Origin: an uncultured Candidatus Saccharibacteria bacterium
GTDB lineage: Bacteria; Patescibacteriota; Minisyncoccia; Minisyncoccales; UBA10102
Assembly (NCBI GenBank): GCA_964359655.1
Contig: CAYHVI010000001.1
Location: forward strand, 3,164 to 67,163
DNA: 64,000 bases
Direction of reading: 5' to 3'
Made by a program: the position numbers and the translations under genes. Of the stretch, positions 5,358 to 54,775 are shown one piece after another (the first letter of the stretch is position 1; the number at the start of each line of letters is the position of its first letter). The notes below the pieces were generated by a model that made no database searches, was not told the origin of the DNA, and was given only the letters and a program-made list of their open reading frames with translations.

Positions 5358-5930
5358 TTACTCGGAAACAATTAGCCAACGCCAGTATGGAAAAGCGAAT
5401 ACGAAGTTGGAGCAAACGAAATATGGGTCCCAACCATCATATGAATCTAGGGGCATGAGGTAGGGTACGCGCGCCTCGCCTTCTGGGTCCTTCCATTCAG
5501 AACCTCCGAAAATTATAGGGCGAGGTATCGGGTGAATTCTTTCATCAGGTTTTGGGAATTTTTTTATGAAAGACTTCAGTGCCTGCCCCTCAAGGAGTCG
5601 ATAACCCATCTTGACAACTTTTCTCTCTGCCTCTTTAACAGTTTCGACATACCCAAGGCTTACAAACTTTACTCGGCATATCTTCTTTCCCTCGAACTTT
5701 GGGCCGATATAACTCCATCTGCTTGCCGATCTGAGAATTTCTAACGCTGTGAGGTATTTTGGGTATTTTGAGCCATCAATCTCGTATTGAGGAAGGGTAA
5801 CTATCTCCAAGGGATCGATATCATTGTCCACTTCGAGTTCGAACCAAACCCCATCTGCGGGAATAGCATTTGCTCGATGACCGCTGCCGTTGAATTGATG
5901 AATGCTTGTCACGGGATATCTCCTCCCCAA
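5358..5930 (-). CDS. Hypothetical protein (190 aa)
   Basis: ORF with an upstream GGGGAGGAG RBS-like sequence. I recognise no motif. Confidence 0.4.
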   Translation of the reverse strand: MGRRYPVTSIHQFNGSGHRANAIPADGVWFELEVDNDIDPLEIVTLPQYEIDGSKYPKYLTALEILRSASRWSYIGPKFEGKKICRVKFVSLGYVETVKEAERKVVKMGYRLLEGQALKSFIKKFPKPDERIHPIPRPIIFGGSEWKDPEGEARVPYLMPLDSYDGWDPYFVCSNFVFAFPYWRWLIVSE

Positions 5931-6128
5931 ATAAAATTCCTCTTCCCAATGGAAGAGGTTTCTTGAGATACGAATCTTTTTGGGGGTTGAATACTGTGTT
6001 TATTCACAGCCCAACAAACCTCTTCCATAGCAAAGAGGTCGTTGTAGTTTTTGCAGCTTTATTATTTACAAATTTCCCCATAATAAAGTAGTGTAATTCA
6101 CGTAAACATATCCGTCAAGTCCGTTATT

Positions 6129-12869: not shown

Positions 12870-14135
12870 TTATACTTTCAAAAGTTTGAGAAATCGTGCG
12901 TTGTCTCTATGGGGGCCAAGCACCACGAGATTAAGCCTCTCTGGTTGGAAAATGTCTCTGGCAACGGCTTGAATATGTTTGGGCGTTACTTTATATATCT
13001 TATCATACAACTGCGCTGGAGTTAACATTTCGCCCCGCAAAAGCTCCTGCATGCCGTAAAAACTTGCTTTTGCGTTGGAAGACTCGAGTTCAAGCGCCAT
13101 TTTCCCTTTTTCGTATTCTTTTACCTTCGTGAGTTCTGTCTTCGATATTCCTGCGCTTTTGAGTTTTTTGTACTCTCTCAAGATAACATAAATCGCTTTT
13201 TCTACAGAATCATTTTTAACGCCTGCCGTTGTTACGAGATACCCGGTATCAGGATTGCTTTCGCTTGTCGTCGCAATATCGTATGCCAAACCGAGTTTCT
13301 CCCTCACCTCCACAAACAAACGGGAGCTCATCATTCCTCCCAAAGCAACGGTCAATAAATGCTGCGCAAAACGCTTAGGATCAGAGAGATTATACGCCCG
13401 CACGCCCAGTGCAATGTTTGTTTGATTCGTTTTTCTCCATTCTAATAATAGGTGCGGGGCATGCTGTTCGTCTCTCACCTGCACCCTTACCATAGAATTT
13501 GCAGTTGGGATTTGCGCAAACGCTTGCCGCGCTTTTTCAACTGCCCTTCTCTGTGTTACATTCCCGGCAATGCACACCACTGTGTTCAAAGCAATATACT
13601 GACGCTTGATATACGCTTGGAGATCCTGTCGGGAAAGCTGAAGAATACTTTCCTTTCTCCCAACAATATTCCATCCTGCAGGCTGATCGCCGTAGAGCAA
13701 CTGCATCCACAAATTGTCTAAGTGTCGGCTCGGCATATCATAATACATATGCAATTCTTCTAACACCACTCCTTTTTCTTTTTGAATTTCTTTGGGCGGC
13801 AGCTTTGAATGCAAAAAGATATCTGCCACCCAGTCTAACGCCAGATCAAAGTGTGTGGCATCCACTTTAGCATAATATCCTGTATAATCTTCTCCGGTAA
13901 AAGCATTATACAAGCCGCCTACCTGGTCGAGCGCTTCTGCCACCAAAAGAGGTGTGGATCTTCTTTGGGTGCCTTTGAAAAACATGTGCTCTAAAAAGTG
14001 GGAGATGCCGTTTTTGTCTCGGGTTTCGTATTTGGAGCCCGTTCCCACCAATACGAAAACGGTCACCGTTCTGGTGCTCCGTTGTGGAATTGTTACAATT
14101 CTCAACCCGTTTTTCAGCGTTGTTTTCTTAGGCAT
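12870..14135 (-). CDS. M16-family (insulinase/pitrilysin-like) zinc peptidase
   Basis: Inverted zinc motif HFLEH followed by …GGLYNAFT…E… glutamate near the N-terminus. I take the start at the internal Met. Confidence 0.75.
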   Translation of the reverse strand: MPKKTTLKNGLRIVTIPQRSTRTVTVFVLVGTGSKYETRDKNGISHFLEHMFFKGTQRRSTPLLVAEALDQVGGLYNAFTGEDYTGYYAKVDATHFDLALDWVADIFLHSKLPPKEIQKEKGVVLEELHMYYDMPSRHLDNLWMQLLYGDQPAGWNIVGRKESILQLSRQDLQAYIKRQYIALNTVVCIAGNVTQRRAVEKARQAFAQIPTANSMVRVQVRDEQHAPHLLLEWRKTNQTNIALGVRAYNLSDPKRFAQHLLTVALGGMMSSRLFVEVREKLGLAYDIATTSESNPDTGYLVTTAGVKNDSVEKAIYVILREYKKLKSAGISKTELTKVKEYEKGKMALELESSNAKASFYGMQELLRGEMLTPAQLYDKIYKVTPKHIQAVARDIFQPERLNLVVLGPHRDNARFLKLLKV

Positions 14136-15492
14136 AAAATTCTTTGTGCAACTTCTCTCGGAGCTTTTCAATTTGTATTCGTTCTCGCTCCATAGTATCG
14201 CGGTCGCGGAGAGTAACGGTATTGTCTTTTAAGGTATCGAAGTCGATGGTAACGCAATGCGGCGTGCCGATTTCGTCTTGCCTGCGGTAACGGCGCCCTA
14301 TGGCACCAACCTCGTCATACTGGCACATAAAATCTTTTTTGAGCAGATTGTGCACTTCCCTTGCCTTTGCCGCGAGCTCTTGCTTGTTCTTCAAAAGCGG
14401 GAATACCGCAACCTGCACAGGCGCTATGTGCTTGGCTAAGCCTAGCACAACTTCTGTTTCTTTTATTGATGTTGTCGTAGTGGTTCTCCCACCTTCGACT
14501 TCTTTGTAGGCATCTATCAGCAACGCAAGCATTGTCCGCTCAATTCCCAACGTAGGCTCAATTACGTACGGGATATATTTTTTACCGGTCTCCTCGTCGT
14601 GATAAAAAAGATTCTTACCAGAAAATTTTTCATGCTGCTTTAAATCAAAATCAGTGCGGTTTGCGATTCCTGCAAGTTCGCCCCATCCAAAAGGAAACTT
14701 ATACTCAATATCCACTGTGCGCTTGGAATAGTGCGCTAAACTTTCTTTGGGATGTTCGTATCGCCGCAGATTCTCTTTTTTTAATCCAAGGTCAATGAAA
14801 AATTGTTCCCATGCATCCACCCAAAAATCAAACCATTTCTCATCTTGCCCGGGCTTCACAAAGAATTCGATTTCTGCGATTTCAAACTCTCGTGATCGAA
14901 AAATAAAGTTGCCGGTTGTAATTTCATTGCGAAATGCTTTTCCTATCTGCGCAATACCAAACGGTATTTTCTGGCGCATGCTTTCCTGCACCAGCCTGAA
15001 ATTCGTGAACATTGATTGTGCTGTTTCCGGACGCAAATAGGTTATATGTGCCGCATCTTCCACTGGACCAAGAAACGTTTTGAACATCAAGTTAAACTGC
15101 TTTGCCTGTGTAAAATCCCTATCCCCGCAAGTGGGGCACTGATTTGGTTCTTTCGCCTCTCCTTGTCCAACAAAACGCCCGTCAATCATATGATCTGCGC
15201 GAAATCTGCTATTGCACGATTTGCACTCGATTAAAGGATCCGTAAAGTTTTCAATGTGACCCGATGACTTCCACACATCAGGATGCATTAAAATAGAAGC
15301 ATCAATCGCAACCACATTGTCCATTTGCTGCACAAAACGACGAAACCACTCTTTTTTGATATTCTGTTTCATTTGAGCGCCCAAAGGCCCAAAATCCCAC
15401 AAAGCTTCCACGCCGCCATAAATTTCAGATGAAGGAAATACAAATCCCCGCCTTTTGACAAGCGATACGATTTTTTTCATCTTGTCGTCCAT
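14128..15492 (-). CDS. glyQS: Glycine--tRNA ligase (dimeric alpha2 class II type)
   Basis: …GFVFPSSEIYGG… class II motifs and an anticodon-binding C-terminal domain. 454 aa. Confidence 0.88.
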   Translation of the reverse strand: MDDKMKKIVSLVKRRGFVFPSSEIYGGVEALWDFGPLGAQMKQNIKKEWFRRFVQQMDNVVAIDASILMHPDVWKSSGHIENFTDPLIECKSCNSRFRADHMIDGRFVGQGEAKEPNQCPTCGDRDFTQAKQFNLMFKTFLGPVEDAAHITYLRPETAQSMFTNFRLVQESMRQKIPFGIAQIGKAFRNEITTGNFIFRSREFEIAEIEFFVKPGQDEKWFDFWVDAWEQFFIDLGLKKENLRRYEHPKESLAHYSKRTVDIEYKFPFGWGELAGIANRTDFDLKQHEKFSGKNLFYHDEETGKKYIPYVIEPTLGIERTMLALLIDAYKEVEGGRTTTTTSIKETEVVLGLAKHIAPVQVAVFPLLKNKQELAAKAREVHNLLKKDFMCQYDEVGAIGRRYRRQDEIGTPHCVTIDFDTLKDNTVTLRDRDTMERERIQIEKLREKLHKEFYA

Positions 15493-15653
15493 ATCGTTAT
15501 TCTAACCACATTCTCTCAAAAAATAAAGAGGGGTTCCGAATAAGTATCGCTATGTCGCTTGTGAAGCCGATCGGCGTTTCAAGCGACACGCTTCAAAACA
15601 AAAAGAAAATCGCGAAAGCCCGTTGAGCAAACAAACCTCCGTCCTTGGAATGT

Positions 15654-16706
15654 TTACAGCTCTATGTCTTCCCATGGGAATCCTGGTCTTCCAAAATGTC
15701 CATAGGTTGCCGTAGGTTGATAAATGGGCTGTCGCAATCCAAGCCGTTCAATGATGGCAAGGGGTCGAAAATCAAATTGTTTTCTTATCACATCAGTAAT
15801 ATTTTCGCCTCTTTCATTCAAAATTTGAACCATCAAAGGTTCTGCCCGGCCAATGGCATACGCCACTGACACCAAGCACTCTTTCGCAAAACCTTGCGCC
15901 ACGAGATTCTTTGCGACAAAACGAGCCATATAAGCACCACTGCGATCAACCTTTGTTGCATCCTTTCCGGAAAAAGCTCCACCACCATGAGGAATAAACC
16001 CGCCATAGCTATCCACCATAATTTTTCTTCCTGTTAAACCAGTGTCGGCAGCAAAACCGCCAAGAACGAACTTTCCGCTAGGATTCACCAGAATCTCCAC
16101 CCCCTCTGCTATACTGCCCAACAAAGGCTGTATCAGTTTTTCCACAATGGTCTGACGTATCTCTTCTTGAGAAATACCCTTTTCGTGCTGGCAACTTACA
16201 AGAATTTTCACTACGCGTCCTTCTTCAACGGTTACCTGCGCCTTGCCATCAGGACCCAGCCAAGGAATCCCCCTTGACTTGCGCAAACTCTCAAGCCCTC
16301 TTGTGAGTTGATGAACCAGAACAACGCCTCTGGGCAAATACTCGGGTGTTTCACGCGTAGCAAACCCATACATAATGCCCTGATCTCCTGCGCCGCCCGT
16401 ATTAACTCCTTGGGCGATATCTGGTGATTGCTGCACGACACGCACCAAGATTTCAAGGTTATCTTCGTATCCAGTTTCTCGATATACGGTGCGGGCAACT
16501 TCCGAGTAATCAACTGCAGCTCTTGTTGTGATTTCTCCGCCGACAACAAAGTATCCATGGCTGCCAAACGATTCAACCGCAACACGACTCAAAGAATCCT
16601 GTCTTAAACATGCATCCAAAATAGCATCTGAAATCTGGTCGCACAGTTTATCTGGGTGTCCCGATGTGACACTTTCGACGGTATATACGTGAGGAATAAA
16701 TGACAT
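15654..16706 (-). CDS. metK: S-adenosylmethionine synthetase
   Basis: GHPDK, GAGDQG and …DTGLTGRKI… motifs. Confidence 0.9.
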   Translation of the reverse strand: MSFIPHVYTVESVTSGHPDKLCDQISDAILDACLRQDSLSRVAVESFGSHGYFVVGGEITTRAAVDYSEVARTVYRETGYEDNLEILVRVVQQSPDIAQGVNTGGAGDQGIMYGFATRETPEYLPRGVVLVHQLTRGLESLRKSRGIPWLGPDGKAQVTVEEGRVVKILVSCQHEKGISQEEIRQTIVEKLIQPLLGSIAEGVEILVNPSGKFVLGGFAADTGLTGRKIMVDSYGGFIPHGGGAFSGKDATKVDRSGAYMARFVAKNLVAQGFAKECLVSVAYAIGRAEPLMVQILNERGENITDVIRKQFDFRPLAIIERLGLRQPIYQPTATYGHFGRPGFPWEDIEL

Positions 16707-18457: not shown

Positions 18458-19081
18458 TCAATTTTGCAGAACCTTTGAAAGATGCTCTTGCGATATGGTG
18501 CGCAAAAGAGTTTCATTTATACCTTGAGTATCAATATTTTGCAAGGATTCAATGTTGCTCTCCAAAAACATCCCAATGAATTCGGCAATTCTCGCGTCTT
18601 TGGCAGCAATCTGCTCTAAAGAAGGCGCATATCCTGCATAAGAAAGAAGGTTCCAAAGGAAATAATAAGCAAGGATCTTCAAATCGTGACTCTCTAGTCT
18701 CGAACGGTTCAGAAAAGAAAGTGTCCCTTTGAGCAAATTCCAAATCTTTTCGTCCCGCTCTTGGCCTTTGATGAGTTCATCGGTAACTTCTGCAAATCTT
18801 TGCATTGCGCGCATACGCTCAAAGCTATTGCGTAACAAAGGATACCGTTCTACAAGAGTGGCGTCGGTAATGGTTTTGCGCGCTTTCCCCTGAATAAATT
18901 CTAGCTCTGAAAGATAAAAAAGCTCCAAGCCTCCGCGAAGTTTGGAAGTAATCTTGCGCTCTGAAATTGCCTGCAATTTTAGTTTGCCAAAATCTTTTGT
19001 AAAAACCGTAAACAGCCGATCTGCCTCCCCTCTATCCTGCTTTTTTAAAATAATCCCTTGTGTCCTGTAATGCACCGTCAT
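18458..19081 (-). CDS. recO: DNA repair protein RecO (short form)
   Basis: OB-fold N-terminus (…GIILKKQDRGEADRLFTVFT…) followed by a helical domain. Confidence 0.65.
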   Translation of the reverse strand: MTVHYRTQGIILKKQDRGEADRLFTVFTKDFGKLKLQAISERKITSKLRGGLELFYLSELEFIQGKARKTITDATLVERYPLLRNSFERMRAMQRFAEVTDELIKGQERDEKIWNLLKGTLSFLNRSRLESHDLKILAYYFLWNLLSYAGYAPSLEQIAAKDARIAEFIGMFLESNIESLQNIDTQGINETLLRTISQEHLSKVLQN

Positions 19082-22000
19082 TATTTTCGGATGGCGAGAC
19101 GGAGAGTTTGGCCTTCTAATGAGAACTCTTCTTCTACATCAAACGTTTGCTCTGACCGATCGCCCTCGCGCATTTCTTTCAACCCAACTTGAGACATAAT
19201 TGCTTTTTCATTTTCTTGCAGAATTTCTTTCAGTTCTTCTGCGCCCGTGTAGCGCAAACGTATTCTGTCTTGCGGCTTGTACCCTGCCTGCTTTCTCATT
19301 TCCTGGATATGGCGCATTATCTCGCGCAATGTTCCTTCTCTTTGCAATACGGGAGTAATGGTGGTATCGAGTTCTACCCCTTCTTTCGCGTTCGGATCGA
19401 CCAGAACCTCTTTTACATTAAGTTCATCCTTTATCAAATCCAGCAATTCTTTCGTCATTTTTAATTTTTCACTTTTAATTTTGAATTTTTGGAGCGGCTG
19501 TCTCACTTTTATTCCGACCTTCGCCCGTTCTGCCAATCCTTCTGCAACCAGCTTGCGAACTTGCATCATTTTTTTCTCGAGCTCTGCGTCAATTTTTTTT
19601 GAATCTGCTTTGGGCCAATTTTGCCAATGTACACTTCCCCTGCCCCCAAGTTCACCATAGATATACTCGCTCAAAAACGGGATGAGTGGCGCGGTCAACT
19701 TGCTGACTTCCAAAAGTACGCATCTTAAAACGCCTCTGGCTTCCTGAAGCTCTTTTTTGCTCTTGGGGTTTTGGGAACGTTGTCGAGAACGTCGAATATA
19801 CCACAAAGAGAGATCGTCGATCACAAAACTTTCGAGCACGCGCGCAGTTCCTGTGATGTCGTATTCATCAAACCTTTTGGTTGCCTCTCTTGTTATGGAG
19901 TGGATTCTCGAAATAATCCACTTATCTAAGATATTTTTTGTTTTGAGGTTTTGGGTTTTAGGGTTTGCTTGAGCATTGAGTCTTGAGGTTTGGGATTTTT
20001 TATATGTTTGGTAGAACACAAAAGAGTTCCACAACGTCAAAATAAATTTGCGCATTGTTTGCTGCAAATCTTTTTCCGCAAATAGTTTGGAATCCCACGG
20101 CTGGTTCAATGTATAAAAATACCAGCGAAGCGTGTCCACTCCATACTTTGCAATCATATCCCAAGGATTTACCACATTTCCTTTGGACTTGGACATTTTC
20201 TCGCCTTTCTCATCAAGCAAATGCCCCAAAGAAATTACGTTTTTGTATGGCGCTTTCAAGCCCAACGCCGTAGCCACAGCCAAAAGCGTATAAAACCATC
20301 CGCGTGTTTGGTCGATTGCTTCGCAAATATAATCTGCGGGGTAACCTTCCACGCCAGAAGCAAACGGCATGGAGCCTGAATCAAACCATACATCCACGAC
20401 GTCTTTTACGCGTTTCATTTGCCCTTTGCCACATTTTCCGCACTGAAATTCGATCGCATCAATGTACGGCCTGTGCAAATCAAGTTCCATATCTTCGTTC
20501 ATGGGAAGCCTCGCGAAAGCTACACGTCTTAACTCTCCTGGTTCAACTGCTTTTTTTTCGCGGAACTGCACGAATTTTTCTCGCGACATTCCCTTCATCG
20601 TTTTCTCCAACAAAGAAAGAGGTATCTCATGACTTACCAAAACAATGCGTTTCCCTTGATACTTTTTTTCTATTGCGGCTAGCAAATCAAACACGCGCTT
20701 TTCAACATCGACCCAATTCTCTCCCTGCGGCGGCCGTTCCACAAATCTACGCAGATAATGCTCCTGGATCGTTTCTCCTTCTTTTCTAAAGTATGCTCCA
20801 AACTCACGAATGTGCTTTCCATTGAAAATGCCTACATTAAGTTCTCGTAGCCGCGCATCGTAGATAATTTGCGCGCCAAGTTTTTTCCCAATGATTTCGG
20901 CAGTTTGTTTCGTTCGCAAAAGATCGGATGAAAAAATCAAATCAATGTTTTTGCGCAACAGACCTTCTGCGATTTTTGTAATTTGTTTCACTCCCTTGGG
21001 CGTCAAAGGAAACGGATCCGCCTCAGGATACGAACCCAAAATCCCCGTTACTTGACGCATAGAATGGCCGTGCCGCAAAAGATAGTACGTGTTTCCCGAA
21101 GTTCTTTGTTTTTTGAGATCGTCCAGAGAACCTATGACTTCCAAATGATCGCACGAACTGCACTCCCACACAGGTAAAGGAGTACCCCAGTACCGTTCTC
21201 TCGAAAACGCCCAGTCTTTCACCTCGGCCAACCATTCACCCATCCTGCCTACTTTCATATGGCTCGGAATCCAATTAATCTGTTGGTTATTCGAAATGAG
21301 ATCTTTTTTAATCTTCTGCATATTCACAAACCAGCTTTCTTTTGCGTAATACAGCAAAGGAGTCGAACACCTCCAGCAAAAAGGATATTCGTGTTCATAC
21401 AACTCTTCTTTGAACAAAAGATTTCTTTGCTTTAAATCTTCAACAATCAGAGGTTCTGCTTCTTTCACGAATACTCCTTGCCATTGAGGCACTAATTCGT
21501 TGAACTTTCCTTCTTCGTCTACCGTATGCCTTTTGGGAAGATTTAGTTTTTGCCCGAGCTTGTAATCGTCTTCTCCGTACATCACCGCAGTGTGCACAAC
21601 TCCTGTTCCTTCCTGCGTAGAAACAAAATCCGCCAGTGCCACATAATGTTTTTTCTCTGGCTGGCTTTTGAGAGAATCAAAAAGCGGTTCATATTCTATA
21701 CCTTCAAGGTTTTTTCCTGAAACTTCTTTGAGAATTTCGTAATCTCCCTGAAGAATCTTTAGAAGATCTTTGGCAAGAATATATATTTCTTCTCCTTGTT
21801 TTACTGCGACATACGAGATATTTTCCCCTACCGCAAGAGCGACGTTCCCAGGCAGTGTCCACGGTGTTGTTGTCCACGCCAACAAAAACAATTTTGAATT
21901 TTGAATTTTGAATTTTGAAATTGTTTCGGATTTCGAATTTCGGATTTCGAATTTCACAAAGACGGTTCTGTCTTTGACCGTCTTGTACCCTTGCGCCAAT

Positions 22001-22596
22001 TCATGCGACGACAAAGGAGTCCCACAACGCGGACAATAAGGCACCACTTTGTAATCTTTATATAACAATCCTTTCTTCCAAAACTGCTGGATAATCCACC
22101 ATAGACTCTCCATATAATTCTTCTCATAGGTGATGTACGGATTATCGATGTCTAACCAAAAACCTATGCGCTCTGTAAGTTCATCCCATTCTCTTTTATA
22201 TTCCCATACCGACTGTTTGCATTCTTTATTGAATTTTGCGATCCCGTATTGCTCAATTTCTTTTTTGGACTTTAATCCAAGTTTTTTCTCAACCTGCAAC
22301 TCTACGGGCAGACCGTGAGTATCCCAGCCAGCTTTTCTGCCAACGTAAAATCCCCGCATTGTTTTGTAGCGGCATATTACGTCTTTAAAAACCCGCGAAA
22401 GAACATGATGAATTCCGGGACTTCCGTTTGCCGTGGGAGGGCCTTCAAAAAATACAAAACGAGGAGAGCGCTTTCTCCTCTCAAGAGATTTTTCAAACGT
22501 TTTCTGCTCTTTCCACCGCTTCAGTATCTGCTCTTCCAACTTCGAAAAATCAGCTTCCATGCTCTTTAGAATACTACGTTTTGCATACCTTTTCAA
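19081..22596 (-). CDS. ileS: Isoleucine--tRNA ligase with an inserted histidine-phosphatase (PGAM-like) domain and two in-frame repeat insertions
   Basis: HIGH-type signature (…PTANGSPGIHHV…), KMSKS (KMSKSKGN), and editing and anticodon-binding domains. Residues ~498-703 (nt ~20488-21105) form a histidine-phosphatase domain (…YYLLRHGHS… plus …VLVSHE…). It sits between the conserved …YWGTPLPVWEC… and …HRPYID…WFDSG… segments. Confidence 0.9.
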   Translation of the reverse strand: MKRYAKRSILKSMEADFSKLEEQILKRWKEQKTFEKSLERRKRSPRFVFFEGPPTANGSPGIHHVLSRVFKDVICRYKTMRGFYVGRKAGWDTHGLPVELQVEKKLGLKSKKEIEQYGIAKFNKECKQSVWEYKREWDELTERIGFWLDIDNPYITYEKNYMESLWWIIQQFWKKGLLYKDYKVVPYCPRCGTPLSSHELAQGYKTVKDRTVFVKFEIRNSKSETISKFKIQNSKLFLLAWTTTPWTLPGNVALAVGENISYVAVKQGEEIYILAKDLLKILQGDYEILKEVSGKNLEGIEYEPLFDSLKSQPEKKHYVALADFVSTQEGTGVVHTAVMYGEDDYKLGQKLNLPKRHTVDEEGKFNELVPQWQGVFVKEAEPLIVEDLKQRNLLFKEELYEHEYPFCWRCSTPLLYYAKESWFVNMQKIKKDLISNNQQINWIPSHMKVGRMGEWLAEVKDWAFSRERYWGTPLPVWECSSCDHLEVIGSLDDLKKQRTSGNTYYLLRHGHSMRQVTGILGSYPEADPFPLTPKGVKQITKIAEGLLRKNIDLIFSSDLLRTKQTAEIIGKKLGAQIIYDARLRELNVGIFNGKHIREFGAYFRKEGETIQEHYLRRFVERPPQGENWVDVEKRVFDLLAAIEKKYQGKRIVLVSHEIPLSLLEKTMKGMSREKFVQFREKKAVEPGELRRVAFARLPMNEDMELDLHRPYIDAIEFQCGKCGKGQMKRVKDVVDVWFDSGSMPFASGVEGYPADYICEAIDQTRGWFYTLLAVATALGLKAPYKNVISLGHLLDEKGEKMSKSKGNVVNPWDMIAKYGVDTLRWYFYTLNQPWDSKLFAEKDLQQTMRKFILTLWNSFVFYQTYKKSQTSRLNAQANPKTQNLKTKNILDKWIISRIHSITREATKRFDEYDITGTARVLESFVIDDLSLWYIRRSRQRSQNPKSKKELQEARGVLRCVLLEVSKLTAPLIPFLSEYIYGELGGRGSVHWQNWPKADSKKIDAELEKKMMQVRKLVAEGLAERAKVGIKVRQPLQKFKIKSEKLKMTKELLDLIKDELNVKEVLVDPNAKEGVELDTTITPVLQREGTLREIMRHIQEMRKQAGYKPQDRIRLRYTGAEELKEILQENEKAIMSQVGLKEMREGDRSEQTFDVEEEFSLEGQTLRLAIRK

Positions 22597-22615
22597 TTAC
22601 CAAATATCCTTTCAA

Positions 22616-22653
22616 ATACTACAAAGTATTGCCATGGCAAGAAGTTGTAGTAT
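22616..22653. promoter_or_regulatory. Nested palindrome ATACTACAA-agta-TTGCCATGGCAA-gaag-TTGTAGTAT (candidate operator between the PaaX-like gene and ileS)
   Basis: A perfect 9-bp inverted repeat flanks a perfect 12-bp palindrome. A near-copy lies on the other side of the PaaX-like gene at 23235-23273. Confidence 0.5.
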
Positions 22654-23231
22654 CAAAGTTTGAAGTATTTTCGAATCTCGCGATCAGCACCAATGTCTCT
22701 TGCCACAATCACTCTTAACTCTTTCTCGCTTAAAGCAAAGAATTCTCGTAAGAGCCCTATTTCGTCCTTACAGTTATATGGGTGAACCCAGACGCTTTTC
22801 TGAAGAGGATACAAGTTCAAACGCTTTAAAAATCCTCGCAAAGCCTCTCGCTTTATTCGCTGCGGCTGGACAATGTCGAAAATAATAATCCTCCAATTTC
22901 CATCCCACTGTTTTGGTTTCTTTATTTCCAGACTATTCACCTGAAACCTTCCTGCCTTCCTTCTTCCCTCTTCAGTGAGAGAAATATAAATCTGATGATT
23001 ATGCTTTTCCACCTTAATATATCCGTCCCGCCGTAATCGAGAGAACGTATCATATATCTTTTTTCTGCCGTATTTCTTCCTTCCAAGAAATGCTCTTAAG
23101 AGATTAGTGCCGAAATAGGGAGATGAGGAGGCGACCACCATTGCACCTCCCGCCGCAAGCCAAGTAAGAATATCTTTCGTAATCTCTGGCTTCGGTTTCT
23201 TTAGATAATATTTGTACTTACTCATATACAT
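22653..23231 (-). CDS. PaaX-family-like winged-helix transcriptional regulator, short form (paralog 1)
   Basis: N-terminal wHTH (…IYDTFSRLRRDGYIKVEKHNHQIYISLTEEGRR…) and the PaaX_C core motif (WDGNWRIIIFDI…LYPLQKSVWV), which resembles E. coli PaaX …WDGKWLLLL…. A 192-aa paralog is at 53769-54347. Confidence 0.55.
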   Translation of the reverse strand: MYMSKYKYYLKKPKPEITKDILTWLAAGGAMVVASSSPYFGTNLLRAFLGRKKYGRKKIYDTFSRLRRDGYIKVEKHNHQIYISLTEEGRRKAGRFQVNSLEIKKPKQWDGNWRIIIFDIVQPQRIKREALRGFLKRLNLYPLQKSVWVHPYNCKDEIGLLREFFALSEKELRVIVARDIGADREIRKYFKL

Positions 23232-23234
23232 AAT

Positions 23235-23273
23235 GGTACTACAATTTATTGCCTAGGCAAAACTTCGTAGTTT
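23235..23273. promoter_or_regulatory. Palindrome TACTACAA-ttta-TTGCCTAGGCAA-aact-TCGTAGT overlapping the start region of PaaX-like paralog 1
   Basis: Second copy of the site found at 22616-22653, located 4-10 nt upstream of the gene's start codon. Confidence 0.5.
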
Positions 23274-23418
23274 CTTAATAGTTCCTAACGAGTTCGTCAA
23301 CGACAGAAACTTTTCAATCGTTCCGCATTGCTCAAATCACCTTTTTAATGCTTTTTCAATTTGAAGTATAATGGCTTAGTATCTATTGTACCTTTTACGG
23401 AAAGGAGATTGAGTAACA

Positions 23419-23816
23419 TGACTCTCAAGGAATGGTGGGAAAAACTTTATGACACTGTGCGTCTAAACGACTCTGGGGAATCTATTAAGTTCTTGGGACG
23501 TGAACCATCTTCCTTACTCCGAAGAGCAATCATGGAAGCCGATAACCCCTTTCCCCTGTCTCTCGGAGAACAGCTGCTCAACATAATCGCACAAGAACTT
23601 TTGAATCGGAATGTAGACCGTGGGGAGCGCATCTCAAATTTATTTGCAATAATAGTAAGTCGCTGCACAAGGACACTACGCGAGAAAGCATTAGGAGAGC
23701 TCATTGTTCTTGATGCAAAAGAACAAGTGGAAGATAGCATTATGGCTGTCGCTCTCCAGCGTCTTCCCTCGTTCTGCCCTTGGGATCCGAGATATTCGAG
23801 TTTGCTCAATAAATGA
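23419..23816 (+). CDS. Hypothetical protein (~132 aa)
   Basis: ORF with an AAGGAGA RBS 8 nt upstream of the ATG at 23419. I recognise no motif. Confidence 0.4.
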
Positions 23817-23857
23817 GGGCGGCAAAACCTTTTACGGTTTTGTCGCCCTCTAACTTT

Positions 23858-24304
23858 TTAAATTCGGGGTCCGTAGTTTCGCTTCTTCATCCCGAAGTTT
23901 ATGAAGGCTTCCAACTTGTGCACGTGGGGAATCTTCCCCACCTTCTCGCGCAAGAACTTGCTGAGCTCCTCCTGCGAACACAAGGTAGCCCAGATGAAGA
24001 TATCAAAAGAACCCGTGGTCATCATCACCCAGTTGACCTCGCTCAACTCCGCAAGGGCGTTCTCTACGCAGTTCACCATCCCTGGCTTTGCCTGAATACC
24101 TACCAATACCTCTGAGGTGTAACCGAGTTTCGCAGGATCGGGCAGCGCCACCATTTTTATGTATCCTTCGCTGATTAACCGTTTCAGCCGACGCCTCACC
24201 ACTTGCTCACTCACTCTCAATAGTCTTGCGATGTAGGCTTTGGAGCGTACAGCGTTCTCTTGTACCATCTTGATGATTTGCAAATCGAGATTATCTAATT
24301 CCAT
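23858..24304 (-). CDS. lrp: Lrp/AsnC-family transcriptional regulator (GC-rich gene)
   Basis: HTH_AsnC (…LDLQIIKMVQENAVRSKAYIARLLRVSEQVVRRRLKRLISEGYIK…) plus a C-terminal RAM domain. GC is clearly above the local background. Confidence 0.8.
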   Translation of the reverse strand: MELDNLDLQIIKMVQENAVRSKAYIARLLRVSEQVVRRRLKRLISEGYIKMVALPDPAKLGYTSEVLVGIQAKPGMVNCVENALAELSEVNWVMMTTGSFDIFIWATLCSQEELSKFLREKVGKIPHVHKLEAFINFGMKKRNYGPRI

Positions 24305-26725: not shown

Positions 26726-27172
26726 ATGAAGGTATATGCCGAAAACAGAAAAGCGCATTTCAACTATGACATTTTGGAAACATTCCAGGCTGGTTTGGCA
26801 TTGCAGGGGCAAGAAGTAAAATCGGTGAGGTTGGGAAGAATAAGTCTTGCCGGGTCTTACGTGATTGTTCGAAGAGAAGAGCTTTTTTTGCGCGGGGCAA
26901 CCATTTCTCCCTACCAGCCAGCGAACGCTCCTACGAACTACCATGCAGAGCGCGACAGAAAGCTTCTGTTGCACAAGGAGGAAATCCAGTATCTTCTCGG
27001 TAAATCAAAGGAAAGGGGCTTGACTTTAGTACCCTTAAAGGCGTATAATGACAAGCGCAATATCAAGCTTGAGTTTGGCTTAGCTCGGGGCAAAAAGAAG
27101 GAAGACAAAAGAGAGAATATCAAAAAAAGAGAAGCCGAACGCGAGATTGAACGCGCCTTAAAATACGGGTAA
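26726..27172 (+). CDS. smpB: SsrA-binding protein
   Basis: …HFNYDILETFQAGLALQGQEVKS… matches SmpB. It is directly followed by tmRNA. Confidence 0.9.
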   Translation: MKVYAENRKAHFNYDILETFQAGLALQGQEVKSVRLGRISLAGSYVIVRREELFLRGATISPYQPANAPTNYHAERDRKLLLHKEEIQYLLGKSKERGLTLVPLKAYNDKRNIKLEFGLARGKKKEDKRENIKKREAEREIERALKYG

Positions 27173-27177
27173 TGCAT

Positions 27178-27546
27178 GGGGATGTCTGTTTTGACAGCGA
27201 GATCAAGAAGTTCTTTGCGATGAGAGTATGGTCTCTTTTAAAACCAAAGCCCAGTTTGACTGGGCAGGCATACAACTGCCAACTTATTTGCCCCACAGCG
27301 GGCACTTGCTTACGCTTAATAAGCGCTAGGCCATTCGCTCTTTGACTCTCGATAAAAGAAGCGGGTGTCAACCATCGAGATAGATAGCTTTTTTGAAGGT
27401 CCGGAAGCTATTGATTTTAAGGACCATCAAAGAGAGAATGGTTTTGTCCAGTTCTCACATCCTCTCTTCAAATTAACTGGACTATCATCGTAGATGGAAT
27501 TTCTTAATCTCGCTGGACGAGGGCTCACTGCCCTCCATCTCCACCC
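27178..27546 (+). ncRNA. ssrA: tmRNA (ssrA)
   Basis: Starts GGGGAUG… 5 nt after the smpB stop. The 3' end is GGACGAGGGCUCACUGCCCUCCAUCUCCACC, with a 5-bp T-stem, 7-nt loop and 7-nt acceptor strand complementary to the 5' GGGGAUG. An internal frame …GCC AAC UUA UUU GCC CCA CAG CGG GCA CUU GCU UAC GCU UAA UAA gives tag …ANLFAPQRALAYA with a double stop. Confidence 0.8.
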
Positions 27547-29099: not shown

Positions 29100-30824
29100 C
29101 TATGGAAGCATCGCAAGCATTTTCTCTGCAGAAAGAGTGTTAATAATATCTTTCTTTTCTGCCCAACCGCGCTTGGCTTGCGCAATACCGTACTTCAAAC
29201 ATCCAAAATGATCTTGAGCATGGGCGTCAGAATCAATAGTCATCTTGCACCCTGCCTCTACGGCCTTTTTAATATTGCTGTCTTTTAAATCTAAACGATC
29301 CGGAAACGCGTTAATCTCTAGAATTGTTCCTGTTTTCTTTACTTCCCTTATAATTTCGTCCATATCAACCTCATACGCCTCCCTCTTATGAATAAGACGG
29401 CCGGTTGGGTGGAACAAGATATCAACATTGGGATTTCGCATGGCTTTCACTATTCTTGCGGTCATATCTTTTTTCGTCATCTTAAAACTCGAGTGCACAG
29501 CAATTCCTACCACATCGAGCCTTGAAAGAACTTCGTCTGTAATATCGAGTGTCCCGTCTTTTCGAATATTCACTTCCGCTCCTTTCAGTATCTTAAATTT
29601 CGAATTTCGAAATTCGGATTTCGAATTTATTTTGTCGATCTCTCGCATCTGCGCCAGCAGTTTTTTCTCGTCCATGCCTCCAGTCATCGCAAGATCTCGT
29701 GTGTGATCAGTTATTGCAATATACTCCAATCCCTGTTTCTTTGCCTCTTTTGCCATAGCTTCTATCGAGTCTTTACCATCGGTCCAGTTTGTCTGCACTT
29801 GCAAGTCTCCTTTCAACGAATCATACGGAATAACGCTTGGAAGTTTTCCTTCAAGGGCACAATCTATTTCTCCTTGATCTTCCCGCAGCTCTGGCTCAAT
29901 ATATTCCATTCCTAATGCTTTGTACACATCTTGTTCGGTTTTGCAGGCAATGCGTTTTTCCCCCCGAAACAATCCATATTCTGAAAGCTTATATCCCTTA
30001 TTTGCAGCACGTGTTCGCAACCTCACATTGTGCTCTTTTGATCCTGTAAAATATTGAAGTCCTGCTCCAAACACCTCTTGCCGCAGAACGCGCATATCAA
30101 TGTCGAACCCTTCGGTAGTGCGCAAAGAAACCTTGGTTGATCCTTTCCCCCAAATTTTTTCATACGAAACCAAGGAAAGAAAATACTCGACTGCTTTTTC
30201 CGGCTTGCTCGTGGTAATCAAGATATCCACATCGCCGATCGTTTCTTTCATTCGCCTGATCGAGCCTGCTGCAACCGCCCGCGTAATCAATGGAGAATCC
30301 TCCAGCCGCGCAACCAAATCTTCTTGATAAGGATAGATGTTGCCGAGGAGCCATCTTCCCTTCGAGCGTTTTACAAAATCAATGCCCTGCAGAATATTTT
30401 GCTCTGTTTTTTCGCCAAAGTTGGGAAGCTTTCGCACCTTGCCTGCTTTGGCCGCTTTTTCCAAATCATCGAGGGTTTTGATTTTCAGATGCTTATACAA
30501 ATCGCGCACCATTTTAGGCCCTACTCCCTCAATAGAAGTAAGCTCTTGAATGTCAACCGGAAATTTCTTCCGGAGTTTTTCATGCTCTTGGATTTCTCCT
30601 GTTTTAATGTACTCTTCGGTTTTCTCTGCTATGCTCTTCCCAACTCCCGGAATCTGTTCTAATCCCCGCAACCCTTCTCTCTCGTATATTTTTTCTACGC
30701 CTTCTGACAGAGATTCTATGGCATTTGCTGCTCTGACATATGCCTGCGGCTTGAAAGGCACACTGTCGATCTCCAGATACAAAGCAATATTCGAAAAGAG
30801 AGAGGCTAATTTTTTATTGGTCAT
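29100..30824 (-). CDS. polX: Family X DNA polymerase with C-terminal PHP domain (PolX)
   Basis: Pol-beta-like N-terminal HhH/fingers/palm (…GVGKSIAEK…, …GSIRRMKETIGDVDILI…) and a C-terminal PHP domain (…HTRDL…, …DSDAHA…). It contains the in-frame repeat insert …INSKSEFRNSKFKI…. Confidence 0.85.
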   Translation of the reverse strand: MTNKKLASLFSNIALYLEIDSVPFKPQAYVRAANAIESLSEGVEKIYEREGLRGLEQIPGVGKSIAEKTEEYIKTGEIQEHEKLRKKFPVDIQELTSIEGVGPKMVRDLYKHLKIKTLDDLEKAAKAGKVRKLPNFGEKTEQNILQGIDFVKRSKGRWLLGNIYPYQEDLVARLEDSPLITRAVAAGSIRRMKETIGDVDILITTSKPEKAVEYFLSLVSYEKIWGKGSTKVSLRTTEGFDIDMRVLRQEVFGAGLQYFTGSKEHNVRLRTRAANKGYKLSEYGLFRGEKRIACKTEQDVYKALGMEYIEPELREDQGEIDCALEGKLPSVIPYDSLKGDLQVQTNWTDGKDSIEAMAKEAKKQGLEYIAITDHTRDLAMTGGMDEKKLLAQMREIDKINSKSEFRNSKFKILKGAEVNIRKDGTLDITDEVLSRLDVVGIAVHSSFKMTKKDMTARIVKAMRNPNVDILFHPTGRLIHKREAYEVDMDEIIREVKKTGTILEINAFPDRLDLKDSNIKKAVEAGCKMTIDSDAHAQDHFGCLKYGIAQAKRGWAEKKDIINTLSAEKMLAMLP

Positions 30825-45918: not shown

Positions 45919-45992
45919 TGTCCCCGGCGCGACTCGAACGCGCAATCTTTGGCTCCGGAGGCCAACGCTCTATCCAATTGAGCTACGGAGAC
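45919..45992 (-). tRNA. tRNA-Arg (anticodon CCG)
   Basis: Cloverleaf GTCTCCG-TAGCTCAATTGGATAGAGC-GTTGGCCTCCGGAGCCAAAG-ATTGC-GCGTTCGAGTCGCGC-CGGGGAC-A. The 7-bp acceptor stem has one G-U pair. The anticodon loop is CTCCGGA and the T-loop is TTCGAGT. CCA is not encoded. Confidence 0.85.
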
Positions 45993-53724: not shown

Positions 53725-53764
53725 TTACTTTGTTAATTCAACCATGGTATTATTAATAAAGTAA
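53725..53764. promoter_or_regulatory. 40-bp palindrome TTACTTTgTTAATtcaaCCATGGtattATTAAtAAAGTAA immediately upstream of PaaX-like paralog 2
   Basis: Near-perfect dyad centred on CCATGG. It ends 5 nt before the ATG at 53769. Confidence 0.5.
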
Positions 53765-53768
53765 GCTT

Positions 53769-54347
53769 ATGAAGTATACATATTATTTTCGGAAGCCAAA
53801 ATCGGAAGTGGCGAAAGATATTTTCCAATGGCTTCTGATAGGAGGGATGATAACCGTTGCAGCAACATCACCTTCCTTTGGCATTCATGCATGGCGAGCG
53901 TTTCAAAAGTGGCAGCAGAAAAAGCAATATCAAAAACGCAATTTTTCCGATATCTTTACGCACCTGCACCGAAAGGGACTGATTGACATAGAGCAACATG
54001 GACACAATCTTCATATTGCTCTTACTCCAAAGGGACGACAACTCGCAGGTTATCTTCAAATCGACTTCCTTAAAATCCAGCGACCAAAAATTTGGGATAA
54101 AAAGTGGAGACTTGTAATGTTTGATATTTCTCAACCAAAACGCAGGCATCGAAACGCTCTACGGGGCAAACTCGAAGAATTAGGATTTGTTCTGTATCAA
54201 AAAAGTGTGTGGCTGCACGCATTTGATTGCCGCAGTGAAATCGCAATACTCAAAGATTTCTTTGGACTCAAAGAAAATGAGATCTCCCTCATAGTGGCAC
54301 AGAAAATTGATCGAGAGGGCTATTTTAAAAAGCGCTTTCGAATATAA
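53769..54347 (+). CDS. PaaX-family-like winged-helix transcriptional regulator, short form (paralog 2)
   Basis: Same architecture as 22653-23231: a wHTH (…FTHLHRKGLIDIEQHGHNLHIALTPKGRQ…) plus the WDKKWRLVMFDI…LYQKSVWL core. Confidence 0.55.
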   Translation: MKYTYYFRKPKSEVAKDIFQWLLIGGMITVAATSPSFGIHAWRAFQKWQQKKQYQKRNFSDIFTHLHRKGLIDIEQHGHNLHIALTPKGRQLAGYLQIDFLKIQRPKIWDKKWRLVMFDISQPKRRHRNALRGKLEELGFVLYQKSVWLHAFDCRSEIAILKDFFGLKENEISLIVAQKIDREGYFKKRFRI

Positions 54348-54375
54348 CCCTCTCCTTAACTTTCTCACAAGGTAT

Positions 54376-54414
54376 ACTTCATTAAGAGTACCATGGTATT
54401 TTTAATCAAGTAAC
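54376..54414. promoter_or_regulatory. Palindrome ACTTcATTAAgagtaCCATGGtatttTTAATcAAGT downstream of PaaX-like paralog 2 (second copy of its cognate site)
   Basis: Dyad centred on CCATGG. It shares ACCATGGTATT(A/T)TTAAT(A/C)AAGTAA with the upstream copy. Confidence 0.5.
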
Positions 54415-54499
54415 ATTACCGATCTCCCTTACACGAAGAGAAAAGCGAAAAACGCGCCGTTCTTTACATTTTTCTCTTTTCGTTTTACACTTGCTCCAT

Positions 54500-54775
54500 A
54501 TGGCAATTACAAAATCAGCGAAAAAGGCTCTACGGCAAAACGCCACAGGAAAAGCAAGAAATCTCAAGAGAAAAAACACCTTTAAGACTCTGATTAAGCA
54601 GGAAAAGAAACTCGTTGAGCAAAAGAATTGGGAAGAAGCGCAAAAGCTTTTGCCCAAACTCTACAAGGCTTTGGACAAAGCTGCACAGCGCGGGGTTCTG
54701 AAGAAAAATACCGCGGCAAGAAAAAAATCGCGGCTTACCAAATTCTTCCGAGCAAACCTTAAAGTTGGGCAATAA
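54500..54775 (+). CDS. rpsT: 30S ribosomal protein S20
   Basis: MAITKSAKKALRQN…. Confidence 0.88.
   Translation: MAITKSAKKALRQNATGKARNLKRKNTFKTLIKQEKKLVEQKNWEEAQKLLPKLYKALDKAAQRGVLKKNTAARKKSRLTKFFRANLKVGQ

Follow-up and report, generated by a model that had tools for sequence, protein, structure and literature searches.

Why does a small bacterial regulator gene stand between two copies of the same palindrome? The question is raised by gene A (22653-23231, minus strand; 192 amino acids from the first ATG, according to the open reading frame (ORF) list, Pfam and a structure model), which lies in a stretch of 64,000 nucleotides, called the window here, from contig CAYHVI010000001.1 of an uncultured Candidatus Saccharibacteria bacterium. 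A first-pass annotation of the window had offered two readings of the arrangement, an autoregulatory repressor with paired operators and a mobile or selfish cassette. The best explanation overall, and one that we consider likely, is an autorepressor (a reduced relative of PaaX, here called mini-PaaX) with one operator embedded in its promoter and an auxiliary operator on the 3' side of its gene. The repressor reading draws on a PaaX fold match, protein-site co-variation, promoter overlap and an operator length and spacing like those of PaaX, whereas synteny and the lack of identical copies speak against the cassette. Patescibacteria (the candidate phyla radiation, CPR) have tiny genomes with very few recognisable regulators, and their gene control is almost unstudied territory.

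Both palindromes of gene A were located. The putative upstream operator is a 38-bp imperfect palindrome, GTACTACAATTTATTGCCTAGGCAAAACTTCGTAGTTT, at 23236-23273 (dyad 23254/23255, centre GCCTAGGC); it lies 4 nt 5' of the first ATG and 10 nt 5' of the likely true start, M3 at 23225, which gives a protein of 190 amino acids as in the NCBI model P0001. The putative downstream operator, ATACTACAAAGTATTGCCATGGCAAGAAGTTGTAGTAT, is also a 38-bp palindrome (22616-22653, dyad 22634/22635, centre GCCATGGC), composed as ATACTACAA-AGTA-TTGCCATGGCAA-GAAG-TTGTAGTAT. Its final base overlaps the TGA stop codon of gene A by 1 nt, and this stop-adjacent position is kept in the orthologues L081 and L083 (L numbers denote loci or contigs). 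A pattern search with up to 3 mismatches recovered exactly two copies of this A-type palindrome in the 64 kb, against 0.00 expected from shuffled sequences, and no third copy appeared in the window when up to 8 mismatches in 26 positions were allowed. Chance occurrence, or a generic repetitive extragenic palindromic (REP) sequence, was rejected on these two results. The near-identical dyads of about 38 bp that the first-pass annotation had placed on either side of gene A are thus real, with coordinates displaced by 1-2 bases (the second copy runs from 23236, not 23235, to 23273).

The annotation had further described a second paralog with the same site-gene-site order and a different palindrome, and this was found as described. 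Gene B (53769-54347, plus strand) encodes a paralogous mini-PaaX protein of 192 amino acids that is 43% identical to A. Its putative upstream operator (53726-53763, dyad 53744/53745, centre ACCATGGT) ends 5 nt before the ATG, and its putative downstream operator (54375-54412, dyad 54393/54394) begins 27 nt after the stop codon; both are 38-bp palindromes. The B-type palindrome differs from the A-type, and it likewise occurs twice in the 64 kb, with 0.00 copies expected. Proteins A and B are present in NCBI as AAB524_01175 and AAB524_00245.

The same layout extends far beyond the window. A comparison set of 80 genomic loci with mini-PaaX relatives, all from Patescibacteria-type metagenome-assembled genomes, contained 76 usable loci, and many of the genomes supply three to five divergent copies (five in JACOYG01). 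When the 130 nt 5' of each start codon were compared with the 130 nt 3' of the stop codon, the segment shared between the flanks exceeded the 99th percentile of the controls, in which flanks from different loci were paired, in 65 of the 76 loci. The shared segments are palindromes of 32-46 nt (median 38) with variable arms and a centre conserved as C-N-A-T-N-G (CCATGG in 46 sites, CGATCG in 14 and CTATAG in eight). The upstream palindrome ends a median of 19 nt before the ATG and the downstream one begins a median of 5 nt after the stop codon. B-type orthologues share the layout, and so do members with no more than 30-35% identity to A (L134-L137), among them another locus in which argS is followed by the mini-PaaX gene. 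Within a genome, every mini-PaaX copy has its own private palindrome arms. The palindrome-bracketed layout is, in short, a hallmark of the mini-PaaX family. Neighbouring genes include argS, ileS, uvrB, rpsT, murB and recA, and no paa genes were seen among them; in a comparison of phylogeny with genomic context aimed at cassette swapping, the neighbour-joining tree of the proteins was star-like, with all identities between 50 and 80%.

What kind of protein is encoded between the palindromes? Protein A consists of a basic N-terminal arm, a winged helix (residues about 16-99) and a Cas2-like PaaX_M domain (107-189). The match to Pfam PaaX_M (PF20803, 'PaaX central Cas2-like domain') scored 62 bits for A and 61.5 for B against a cut-off of 24 (E about 1e-17), and the N-terminal halves of both gave weak winged-helix profile matches. 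The earlier description of a winged helix-turn-helix (wHTH) protein with a PaaX-like WDGNW...QKSVW core was borne out, with WDGNW at residues 109-113, QKSVW at 144-148 and a PaaX_M match of E = 5e-17 for A. The PaaX equivalog model TIGR02277 scored 38 and 30 bits, below its cut-off of 264.55. Pfam CRISPR_Cas2 gave 16.1 and 18.9 bits (cut-off 23.8), and the Cas2 model TIGR01573 gave 24.5 bits for B, exactly its cut-off, and 13.7 for A.

An AlphaFold2 model built on 63 homologues (predicted local distance difference test score 72.5 overall, 85-95 in the C-terminal domain and 55-70 in the wHTH) contains a winged helix of H-E-H-H-E-E topology (helices 16-28, 40-49 and 56-68, strand 30-34 and wing 72-85), a linker helix and a C-terminal domain (113-189) of beta-alpha-beta-beta-alpha-beta fold. 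A Foldseek search of the PDB gave E. coli PaaX (8a39) as the top match (E = 4e-7 over 184 columns), followed by the PaaX-like 3l09 and 3kfw, with generic PadR/ArsR winged helices and Cas2 structures lower down. Strand 113-118 is followed by an invariant aspartate, D119, at the position of the Cas2-type metal-binding residue. In the C-terminal profile, FDI...R...QKSVW is aligned with YDV...R...QRSAF of Cas2 SSO8090, whereas the PaaX-like Rv0674 has VTS at this place; the mini-PaaX family therefore keeps the Asp at the Cas2 catalytic position. The first-pass annotation had left the C-terminal half between PaaX_C and a Cas2-like fold: no PaaX_C domain was detected by Pfam in A or B, protein A ends at residue 192, and the half is a Cas2-like PaaX_M domain with the Cas2-type Asp. 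Mini-PaaX is, in sum, a homologue of PaaX that keeps only the two N-terminal domains and has lost the C-terminal effector domain. At the level of domains it belongs to the PaaX superfamily, but it is not an equivalog.

An N-terminal hydrophobic stretch gave matches to beta-lactamase leaders, but these were spurious and a signal peptide was discarded, as the stretch forms helix 1 and strand 1 of the modelled winged helix. A second invariant residue is C154, conserved family-wide including the distant members, within a motif (H/Y)P(Y/F)xCxxE (HPYNCKDE at residues 150-157 of A). Together with His150 and Glu157 it could form a redox- or metal-sensing site, and the physiological signal may possibly be of this kind.

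An exhaustive phmmer search (E <= 1e-10) placed 1687 clusters at 50% identity in the family, nearly all of 180-205 amino acids. In the literature consulted, no paper was found linking PaaX to Cas2 or to CPR bacteria, and mini-PaaX is apparently a large, undescribed CPR family of truncated PaaX-like DNA-binding proteins. Its public labels conflict, with 'CRISPR-associated endonuclease Cas2', 'PadR family regulator', 'PaaX', 'phenylacetic acid degradation operon negative regulatory protein' and 'hypothetical protein' all in use (P0274, P0314, P0301 and P0350). An association with phages or defence was considered and dismissed: there was one distant viral match, without palindromes, and PADLOC and PHROGs gave only weak Cas2 or wHTH matches.

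Does the protein read the palindromes that surround it? The sites of 55 loci were anchored on their dyads and every alignment column was scanned against every base with 200 permutations per pair. Co-variation of protein and flanking site, which the first-pass annotation had suggested, is present and is specific to the domains. Central positions -1, -2, -4 and -5 vary with residues 122, 125 and 129, which lie on one face of helix alpha-1, the helix of the Cas2-like domain that directly follows D119 (permutation z-scores at central positions of 15.5, 11.8 and 10.6). The outer arm, -13 to -17, varies with residues 60, 64 and 65 in the recognition helix (56-68) of the winged helix, and positions -9 and -12 vary with residues 11 and 14 of the basic N-terminal arm. 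At the centre, E129 is paired with G at -4 in 36 of 37 loci and N or D129 with A; Q122 plus K125 goes with GCCATGGC and E122 plus K125 with GCTATAGC, in several separate clades, and R125 with a CGATCG centre. In the arms, N65 is paired with T-14/A-13 (..CGTA.. arms) in 11 of 12 loci, K65 with C-14 in nine of nine, and Y64 with C-16 in 31 of 33. Among 298 protein pairs at least 66% identical, a change at a code residue predicts a change at the matching base, and the cross-domain controls on these pairs (129 against -14, 65 against -4, 122 against -16 and 64 against -2) were null (p 0.1-1.0); as the pairs are not mutually independent, the small p-values are inflated and the null controls are the meaningful comparison.

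These pairings lead us to conclude, with high confidence, that the mini-PaaX protein recognises the palindromes on either side of its gene and that the Cas2-like domain acts as a second base-reading head besides the winged helix. In PaaX this domain has hitherto been treated as a dimerisation module, and base-specific reading of the operator centre, as the co-variation indicates for mini-PaaX, would be a difference between the two. We propose that mini-PaaX binds its palindrome of about 38 bp as a symmetric dimer, one 19-bp half-site per monomer, in which the recognition helix (60/64/65) would read the outer arm from -13 to -17, the N-terminal arm (11/14) the A/T-rich stretch from -9 to -12, and helix alpha-1 (122/125/129) the central positions -1 to -5. 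In the A-type sites the central dinucleotide switches between AT and TA with palindromy kept (CCATGG/CCTAGG), which argues for a two-fold symmetric dimer on duplex DNA and not for a hairpin loop. Genomes hold several units of mutually distinct ('orthogonal') specificity, with a few solo sites of each type.

The upstream site points to what such binding would do. The half-centre of the palindromes (TTGCCA/TTGACG) resembles a -35 hexamer, and a -10-like hexamer is found at +17 to +19 from the dyad, on the side facing the gene, in 52% of upstream sites at a score of at least 4/6 (A2 and T6 being required) and in 39% at 5/6 or better. In the other three directions the corresponding values are 29-33% and 4-10%, and in the background 9% and 2%. 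In many loci the -10 hexamer of the upstream site is followed by the ATG at a distance of 6-8 nt, and the mRNAs there should be leaderless. The predicted promoter of gene A (23260-23233, minus strand) has its -35 TTGCCT at 23260-23255, a spacer of 16 nt, the -10 TACCAT at 23238-23233 and a further 7 nt to the ATG at 23225; this leaderless spacing fits the 190-residue NCBI model, and the layout recurs in the orthologues L081 and L124 (TTGCCT-16-TATCAT-7/8-ATG). In gene B the upstream site holds an extended -10-like sequence, TGGTATTAT, at 53745-53753, at the dyad, and B-type upstream sites generally do likewise. Because the upstream palindrome covers the gene's own -35 and -10, binding should exclude RNA polymerase and switch the gene off. 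It is this overlap with the gene's own, often leaderless, promoter that makes autorepression the best reading, and we regard autorepression through the upstream site as quite probable.

PaaX itself offers a close precedent, since it autorepresses its Px promoter by blocking RNA polymerase from a 39-bp operator, TGATTC-N27-GAATCA (PMC9493321); mini-PaaX would exert the same negative autoregulation. The PaaX proteins 8a39, 3l09 and 3kfw (PaaX being the GntR-type repressor of phenylacetate genes) are alike in winged helix and PaaX_M domain and are the best structural matches. The operators are comparable as well, that of PaaX with distant half-sites and those of mini-PaaX with a median of 38 nt, arms at -13 to -18 and overlap with -35 and -10. 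On the other hand, mini-PaaX has no C-terminal phenylacetyl-CoA effector domain and no paa genes nearby, keeps the Cas2-type Asp (FDI) where the PaaX-like Rv0674 has VTS, and differs from PaaX in operators that bracket the gene and in its many distinct specificities in Patescibacteria. In the window, at L128 and L019 and at many L0xx loci, promoter-like TTGnnn-16/17-TAnnnT hexamers 6-8 nt before the ATG were observed at several unrelated genes (ileS, rpsT, dnaB, an oxidoreductase and many mini-PaaX genes), which suggests that leaderless mRNAs are common in the lineage.

What, then, is the downstream site for? It probably serves the same protein as an auxiliary operator, an assignment of moderate to low confidence. 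It is kept in 45 of 50 loci in which the next gene is co-directional, and the distance between the centres of the two sites is 615-766 bp (median about 647). The downstream site could cooperate with the upstream one across a loop of about 620-650 bp enclosing the gene, and it could also insulate the next gene (ileS for A, rpsT for B) or keep transcription from running on into it; such a looping or roadblock role is a tentative proposal, to which we give somewhat less than an even chance. In the lambda CI system (OR/OL) too, the repressor gene lies between operators of its own product, which a loop joins, and long-range cooperation would tighten autoregulation here in the same way. Mini-PaaX differs in having a single palindrome on each side, a putative loop of about 0.62-0.65 kb and no phage context.

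The first-pass annotation had assigned the downstream site of gene A to the ileS promoter region. This is only approximately right: the site stops 20 nt short of the -35 hexamer of the leaderless promoter that a promoter scan predicts for ileS (22558-22596, minus strand; TTGAAA at 22596-22591, 17 nt, TATTCT at 22573-22568, 7 nt and ATG at 22560, the probable true start). The same promoter layout was seen in L083 (TTGAAA-17-TAGATT-7-ATG) and in L014, and ileS homologues begin MEADF..., which bears on the start at 22560. For gene B, the downstream site ends 50 nt 5' of the -35 hexamer of a similar predicted leaderless rpsT promoter read from the sequence (54463-54502, plus strand; TTTACA at 54463-54468, 17 nt, TACACT at 54486-54491, 8 nt and ATG at 54500), rpsT being identified by a Pfam Ribosomal_S20p match. 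Two simpler roles were tried for the downstream site and found no support, namely an intrinsic terminator (there is no T enrichment, and the terminator scan was blank there) and merely the promoter of the next gene (the site is present in 18 of 23 convergent loci, and its -10 signal is weakly above background). In L010 and L021 the downstream site lies 12 nt before the start of the next gene, as an upstream site would.

The palindromes might alternatively act in RNA, as 5' and 3' mRNA hairpins that are bound or cut by a Cas2/VapD-like RNase domain and so set mRNA stability or termination. RNase activity has been reported for Cas2 and VapD relatives, the downstream sites start a median of 5 nt after the stop codon, gene-less palindromes too often follow a stop codon by 3-24 nt, and sense-strand G.T mismatches are slightly more numerous than A.C mismatches (67 against 46). 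However, this G.T excess is weak, no T-run follows the downstream sites and no Rfam match was obtained at the sites. Moreover, the centre is kept two-fold symmetric (CCATGG, CGATCG, CTATAG and the AT/TA switch), which is needless in a hairpin loop, and many upstream sites contain the -35 and have a -10 only 6-8 nt from the ATG, so that their left half is untranscribed. An RNA-level device is accordingly very unlikely.

The observations that weigh against an autorepressor with two operators concern the protein, the downstream site, the palindromes away from any gene and the symmetry of the flanks. The first of them is that dimer formation, DNA binding and repression are all deduced from sequence patterns. 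D119 is retained, where the PaaX-like Rv0674 has no such residue, and the protein has no recognisable ligand-binding domain. Specificity seems to change rapidly, as the syntenic orthologues L004, L006, L024 and L008 have differing arms with matching residue changes. The downstream site is kept in 18 of 23 loci with a convergent next gene, which simple regulation does not explain, and its distance to the next promoter varies, with sites centred at about -60, -75 and -106. Helical phasing of the two sites, sought as a sign of looping, was absent (no periodicity of 10-11 bp; Rayleigh p 0.17-0.49). Nor is there a T-run after the downstream sites, where the 10 nt 3' hold 3.9 T on average, no more than in the control flank.

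Solo palindromes belong to the same group of observations. A metagenome scan with the A-type half-site returned 43 stretches, seven of which carry the gene (four with both sites and three with one A-type site found). Twelve others, on contigs that lack the gene, hold a full A-type palindrome (14 or more of 19 pairs), and many of these contigs share groundwater sample and coverage range with gene-bearing contigs. The remaining 24 stretches (at most 11 of 19 pairs) are mostly chance-like half-site matches, although L126 (Hainich H51) may be a half site. The intergenic contexts of the solos include the space between a cysS stop codon and a dnaB promoter, positions 5' of TldD/PmbA-like genes (in two samples) and of a pyrH-like gene, and gaps between convergent genes; many begin 3-24 nt after a stop codon. 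Six solos are nested in a longer inverted repeat, CCATCAAAGTTCAGGAA...TTCGTGGGTTTTGATGG. The nested examples (L091:463-545, L118:984-1075, L105:~515-640, L104:~5800-5950, L112 and L114) have differing gene contexts and sometimes an extra hairpin in between; the repeat CCATCAAAGTTCAGGAA...TTCGTGGGTTTTGATGG looks like a small MITE-like (miniature inverted-repeat transposable) element or a composite site for a second factor, and is absent from the window.

About 650 kb of related loci yielded three solos belonging to other types (L056:1580, L019:871 and L072:7488), and that of L072 matches the type of L066 from the same genome. The window itself holds one family-like solo palindrome of 38 nt at 15551-15588 (GTCGCTTG..GCCGATCGGC..CAAGCGAC), in the gap that separates a class II aminoacyl-tRNA synthetase gene (14128-15492) from metK (15654-16706). 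It has neither a T-run nor an adjacent mini-PaaX gene and could be the target of a paralog encoded beyond the window. As a group, the solos may represent a small regulon or a low-copy element. The first-pass annotation had named a wide occurrence of the palindromes without an adjacent gene, as expected of generic REP sequences, as a result that would refute it: this is partly the case, with the 12 A-type solos, but they are low in copy number and specific to the cognate protein, and hence are not generic REPs.

The flanks themselves are more alike than binding alone needs. In 31 of the 65 loci the two sites share non-symmetric positions, in direct orientation in 21 and inverted orientation in 10, pointing to duplication or gene conversion; the inverted class tends to go with a divergent upstream neighbour. 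At L014 (3870-4800) a perfect inverted repeat of 52 nt extends 12 nt past the palindrome (GACACCCCTCAA). This completes the evidence unfavourable to the autorepressor.

Between argS and ileS, the L014 unit moreover runs in the opposite orientation to that of eight other loci, and the L014 protein is not the nearest relative of theirs. Such a case recalls a site-specific inversion or excision switch like that of Hin, whose gene has hixL on one side and hixR on the other, both of them imperfect palindromes; the protein of about 190 residues would recombine its flanking palindromes and flip or excise its own gene. The similar layout, the inverted L014 unit and the occurrence of both direct and inverted relative site orientations fit this idea. 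However, L014 is the single clear inverted case, and its protein's distance from the others there fits poorly. Crossover at the dyads of direct repeats would give two different perfect palindromes, unlike L014. The protein has no recombinase domain or universal nucleophile, and the N-terminal YKYY is absent in distant members that have the layout. In Pfam, NCBIfam, PADLOC and PHROGs the protein matched only PaaX_M, wHTH and, weakly, Cas2 entries, with no sign of an HUH, tyrosine or serine recombinase; for a resolvase catalytic domain with a nucleophilic serine there was no Pfam or NCBIfam match, and the fold search returned only PaaX, wHTH and Cas2. A Hin-like switch is thus highly improbable.

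Is the unit, then, mobile in some other way? Orthologues with 74-80% identity keep the same neighbours. Those of A (74-77%) likewise lie 5' of an ileS with a histidine-phosphatase insert and have argS on the other side, and those of B (77-80%) share the order ruvA-uvrB-X-rpsT-holA, X being the mini-PaaX gene. In all-against-all blastn comparisons the closest locus pairs align across kilobases of flanking genes. The within-genome paralogs L013 and L047 (79% nucleotide identity) share the ORF alone and not the sites, the similarity stopping at the ORF ends. No identical, near-identical or tandem copies of the unit were found (none has a second copy within 4 kb). Synteny of the orthologues together with the lack of identical copies gives no sign of recent mobility, and recent transposition, or an insertion sequence or MITE, was rejected on the syntenic closest pairs, the ORF-only similarity of the paralogs and the absence of tandem copies.

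An ancient or domesticated selfish cassette of the REP/RAYT type (RAYT being the REP-associated tyrosine transposase) is a different matter, and the solo copies, some within nested inverted repeats, keep such a role or a nuclease role in view. The palindromes would here be dispersed elements of low copy number and the flanked protein the cognate enzyme that maintains or processes them, its Cas2-like domain cutting or nicking the palindrome centre by means of D119. RAYT genes are flanked by their REPs, and the site-gene-site layout mirrors this. Further resemblances are the several units of distinct specificity per genome (five in JACOYG01), the 12 solo A-type sites against seven gene-bearing contigs together with the three solos of other types, the six nested solos, the shared asymmetries with the inverted L014 unit and its 52-nt repeat, and the invariance of the Cas2-type Asp. 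Like REP/RAYT (REPIN) systems, mini-PaaX has a single-copy, vertically inherited gene with cognate palindromes, type-specific pairing, several pairs per genome, and solo intergenic palindromes often just after stop codons. Against this, near-identical copies are lacking, paralog similarity ends at the ORF borders, A and B orthologues are syntenic, no third copy occurs in the 64 kb, no HUH, tyrosine or serine recombinase signature is present, and the conserved surface features are all accounted for by DNA reading. Mini-PaaX is not an HUH-Y1 (IS200/IS605-like) transposase, as it has no such match in Pfam, NCBIfam or PHROGs and its fold is PaaX-like; its palindromes are low in copy number (none extra in the 64 kb, and roughly one or two solos per gene in metagenomes), and its upstream copy is the gene's promoter. 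We therefore consider a REP/RAYT-type origin unlikely. Slightly less probable still is a Cas2-like domain that, besides reading bases, works as a sequence-specific nuclease or nickase on the centre of the 36-40-bp palindromes, both those around its gene and the solos, with units that propagate themselves in a REP/RAYT-like or proto-CRISPR-like manner.

The relationship to Cas2 deserves a comparison of its own. The beta-alpha-beta-beta-alpha-beta fold and the beta1-alpha1 motif are common to both, as is an association with partly palindromic repeats of about 36-38 bp flanking a DNA unit, and Cas2 profiles match mini-PaaX weakly. The mini-PaaX domain differs in being fused to a winged helix and in apparently reading bases beyond the DNA backbone, and its repeats flank a 580-bp gene instead of a spacer. 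Neither cas1 nor a CRISPR array was found in the 64-kb window, which has no spaced direct repeats, and no cas gene was present among the called neighbours of the related loci. If a Cas2 relative does natively recognise repeat-like palindromes, this would bear on the origin of Cas2 and of CRISPR repeats.

The family also matters for the lineage as a whole. With at least 1687 clusters, and four or five copies in some genomes, mini-PaaX may be among the main sets of DNA-binding proteins in CPR bacteria. Every copy carries its own target on both flanks, and so the family offers hundreds of natural protein-operator pairs. A recognition code that can be read from sequence (residues 60/64/65, 11/14 and 122/125/129 against defined bases) is rare and could be used for the design of repressors that do not cross-react. 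In view of the homogenised flanks, the solo copies and a downstream site that simple regulation does not account for, more than plain autoregulation may be at work.

Some features of the surrounding DNA were observed in addition. The ileS gene next to gene A (19081-22560, minus strand) contains a histidine-phosphatase domain (His_Phos_1, E = 1.8e-33; residues 493-667) between the halves of its catalytic core, as it does in L083, and such a fusion of an aminoacyl-tRNA synthetase with a phosphatase is unusual. An AATTTCG heptamer is repeated in tandem, with 9.9 copies at 21890-21955 within the ileS coding region and 4.7 copies at 29596-29628. A period of 7 nt within the ileS ORF is odd, and frame-changing variation in its length could occur. 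A G+C-rich hairpin at 23813-23850 (GAGGGCGGCAAAACC...GGTTTTGTCGCCCTC), between the convergent genes 23418-23816 and 23858-24304 (the latter an AsnC/Lrp regulator), resembles a bidirectional terminator and does not belong to the palindrome family. A tmRNA gene (27178-27546) adjoining smpB (26726-27172) and one tRNA gene (45919-45992) are ordinary.

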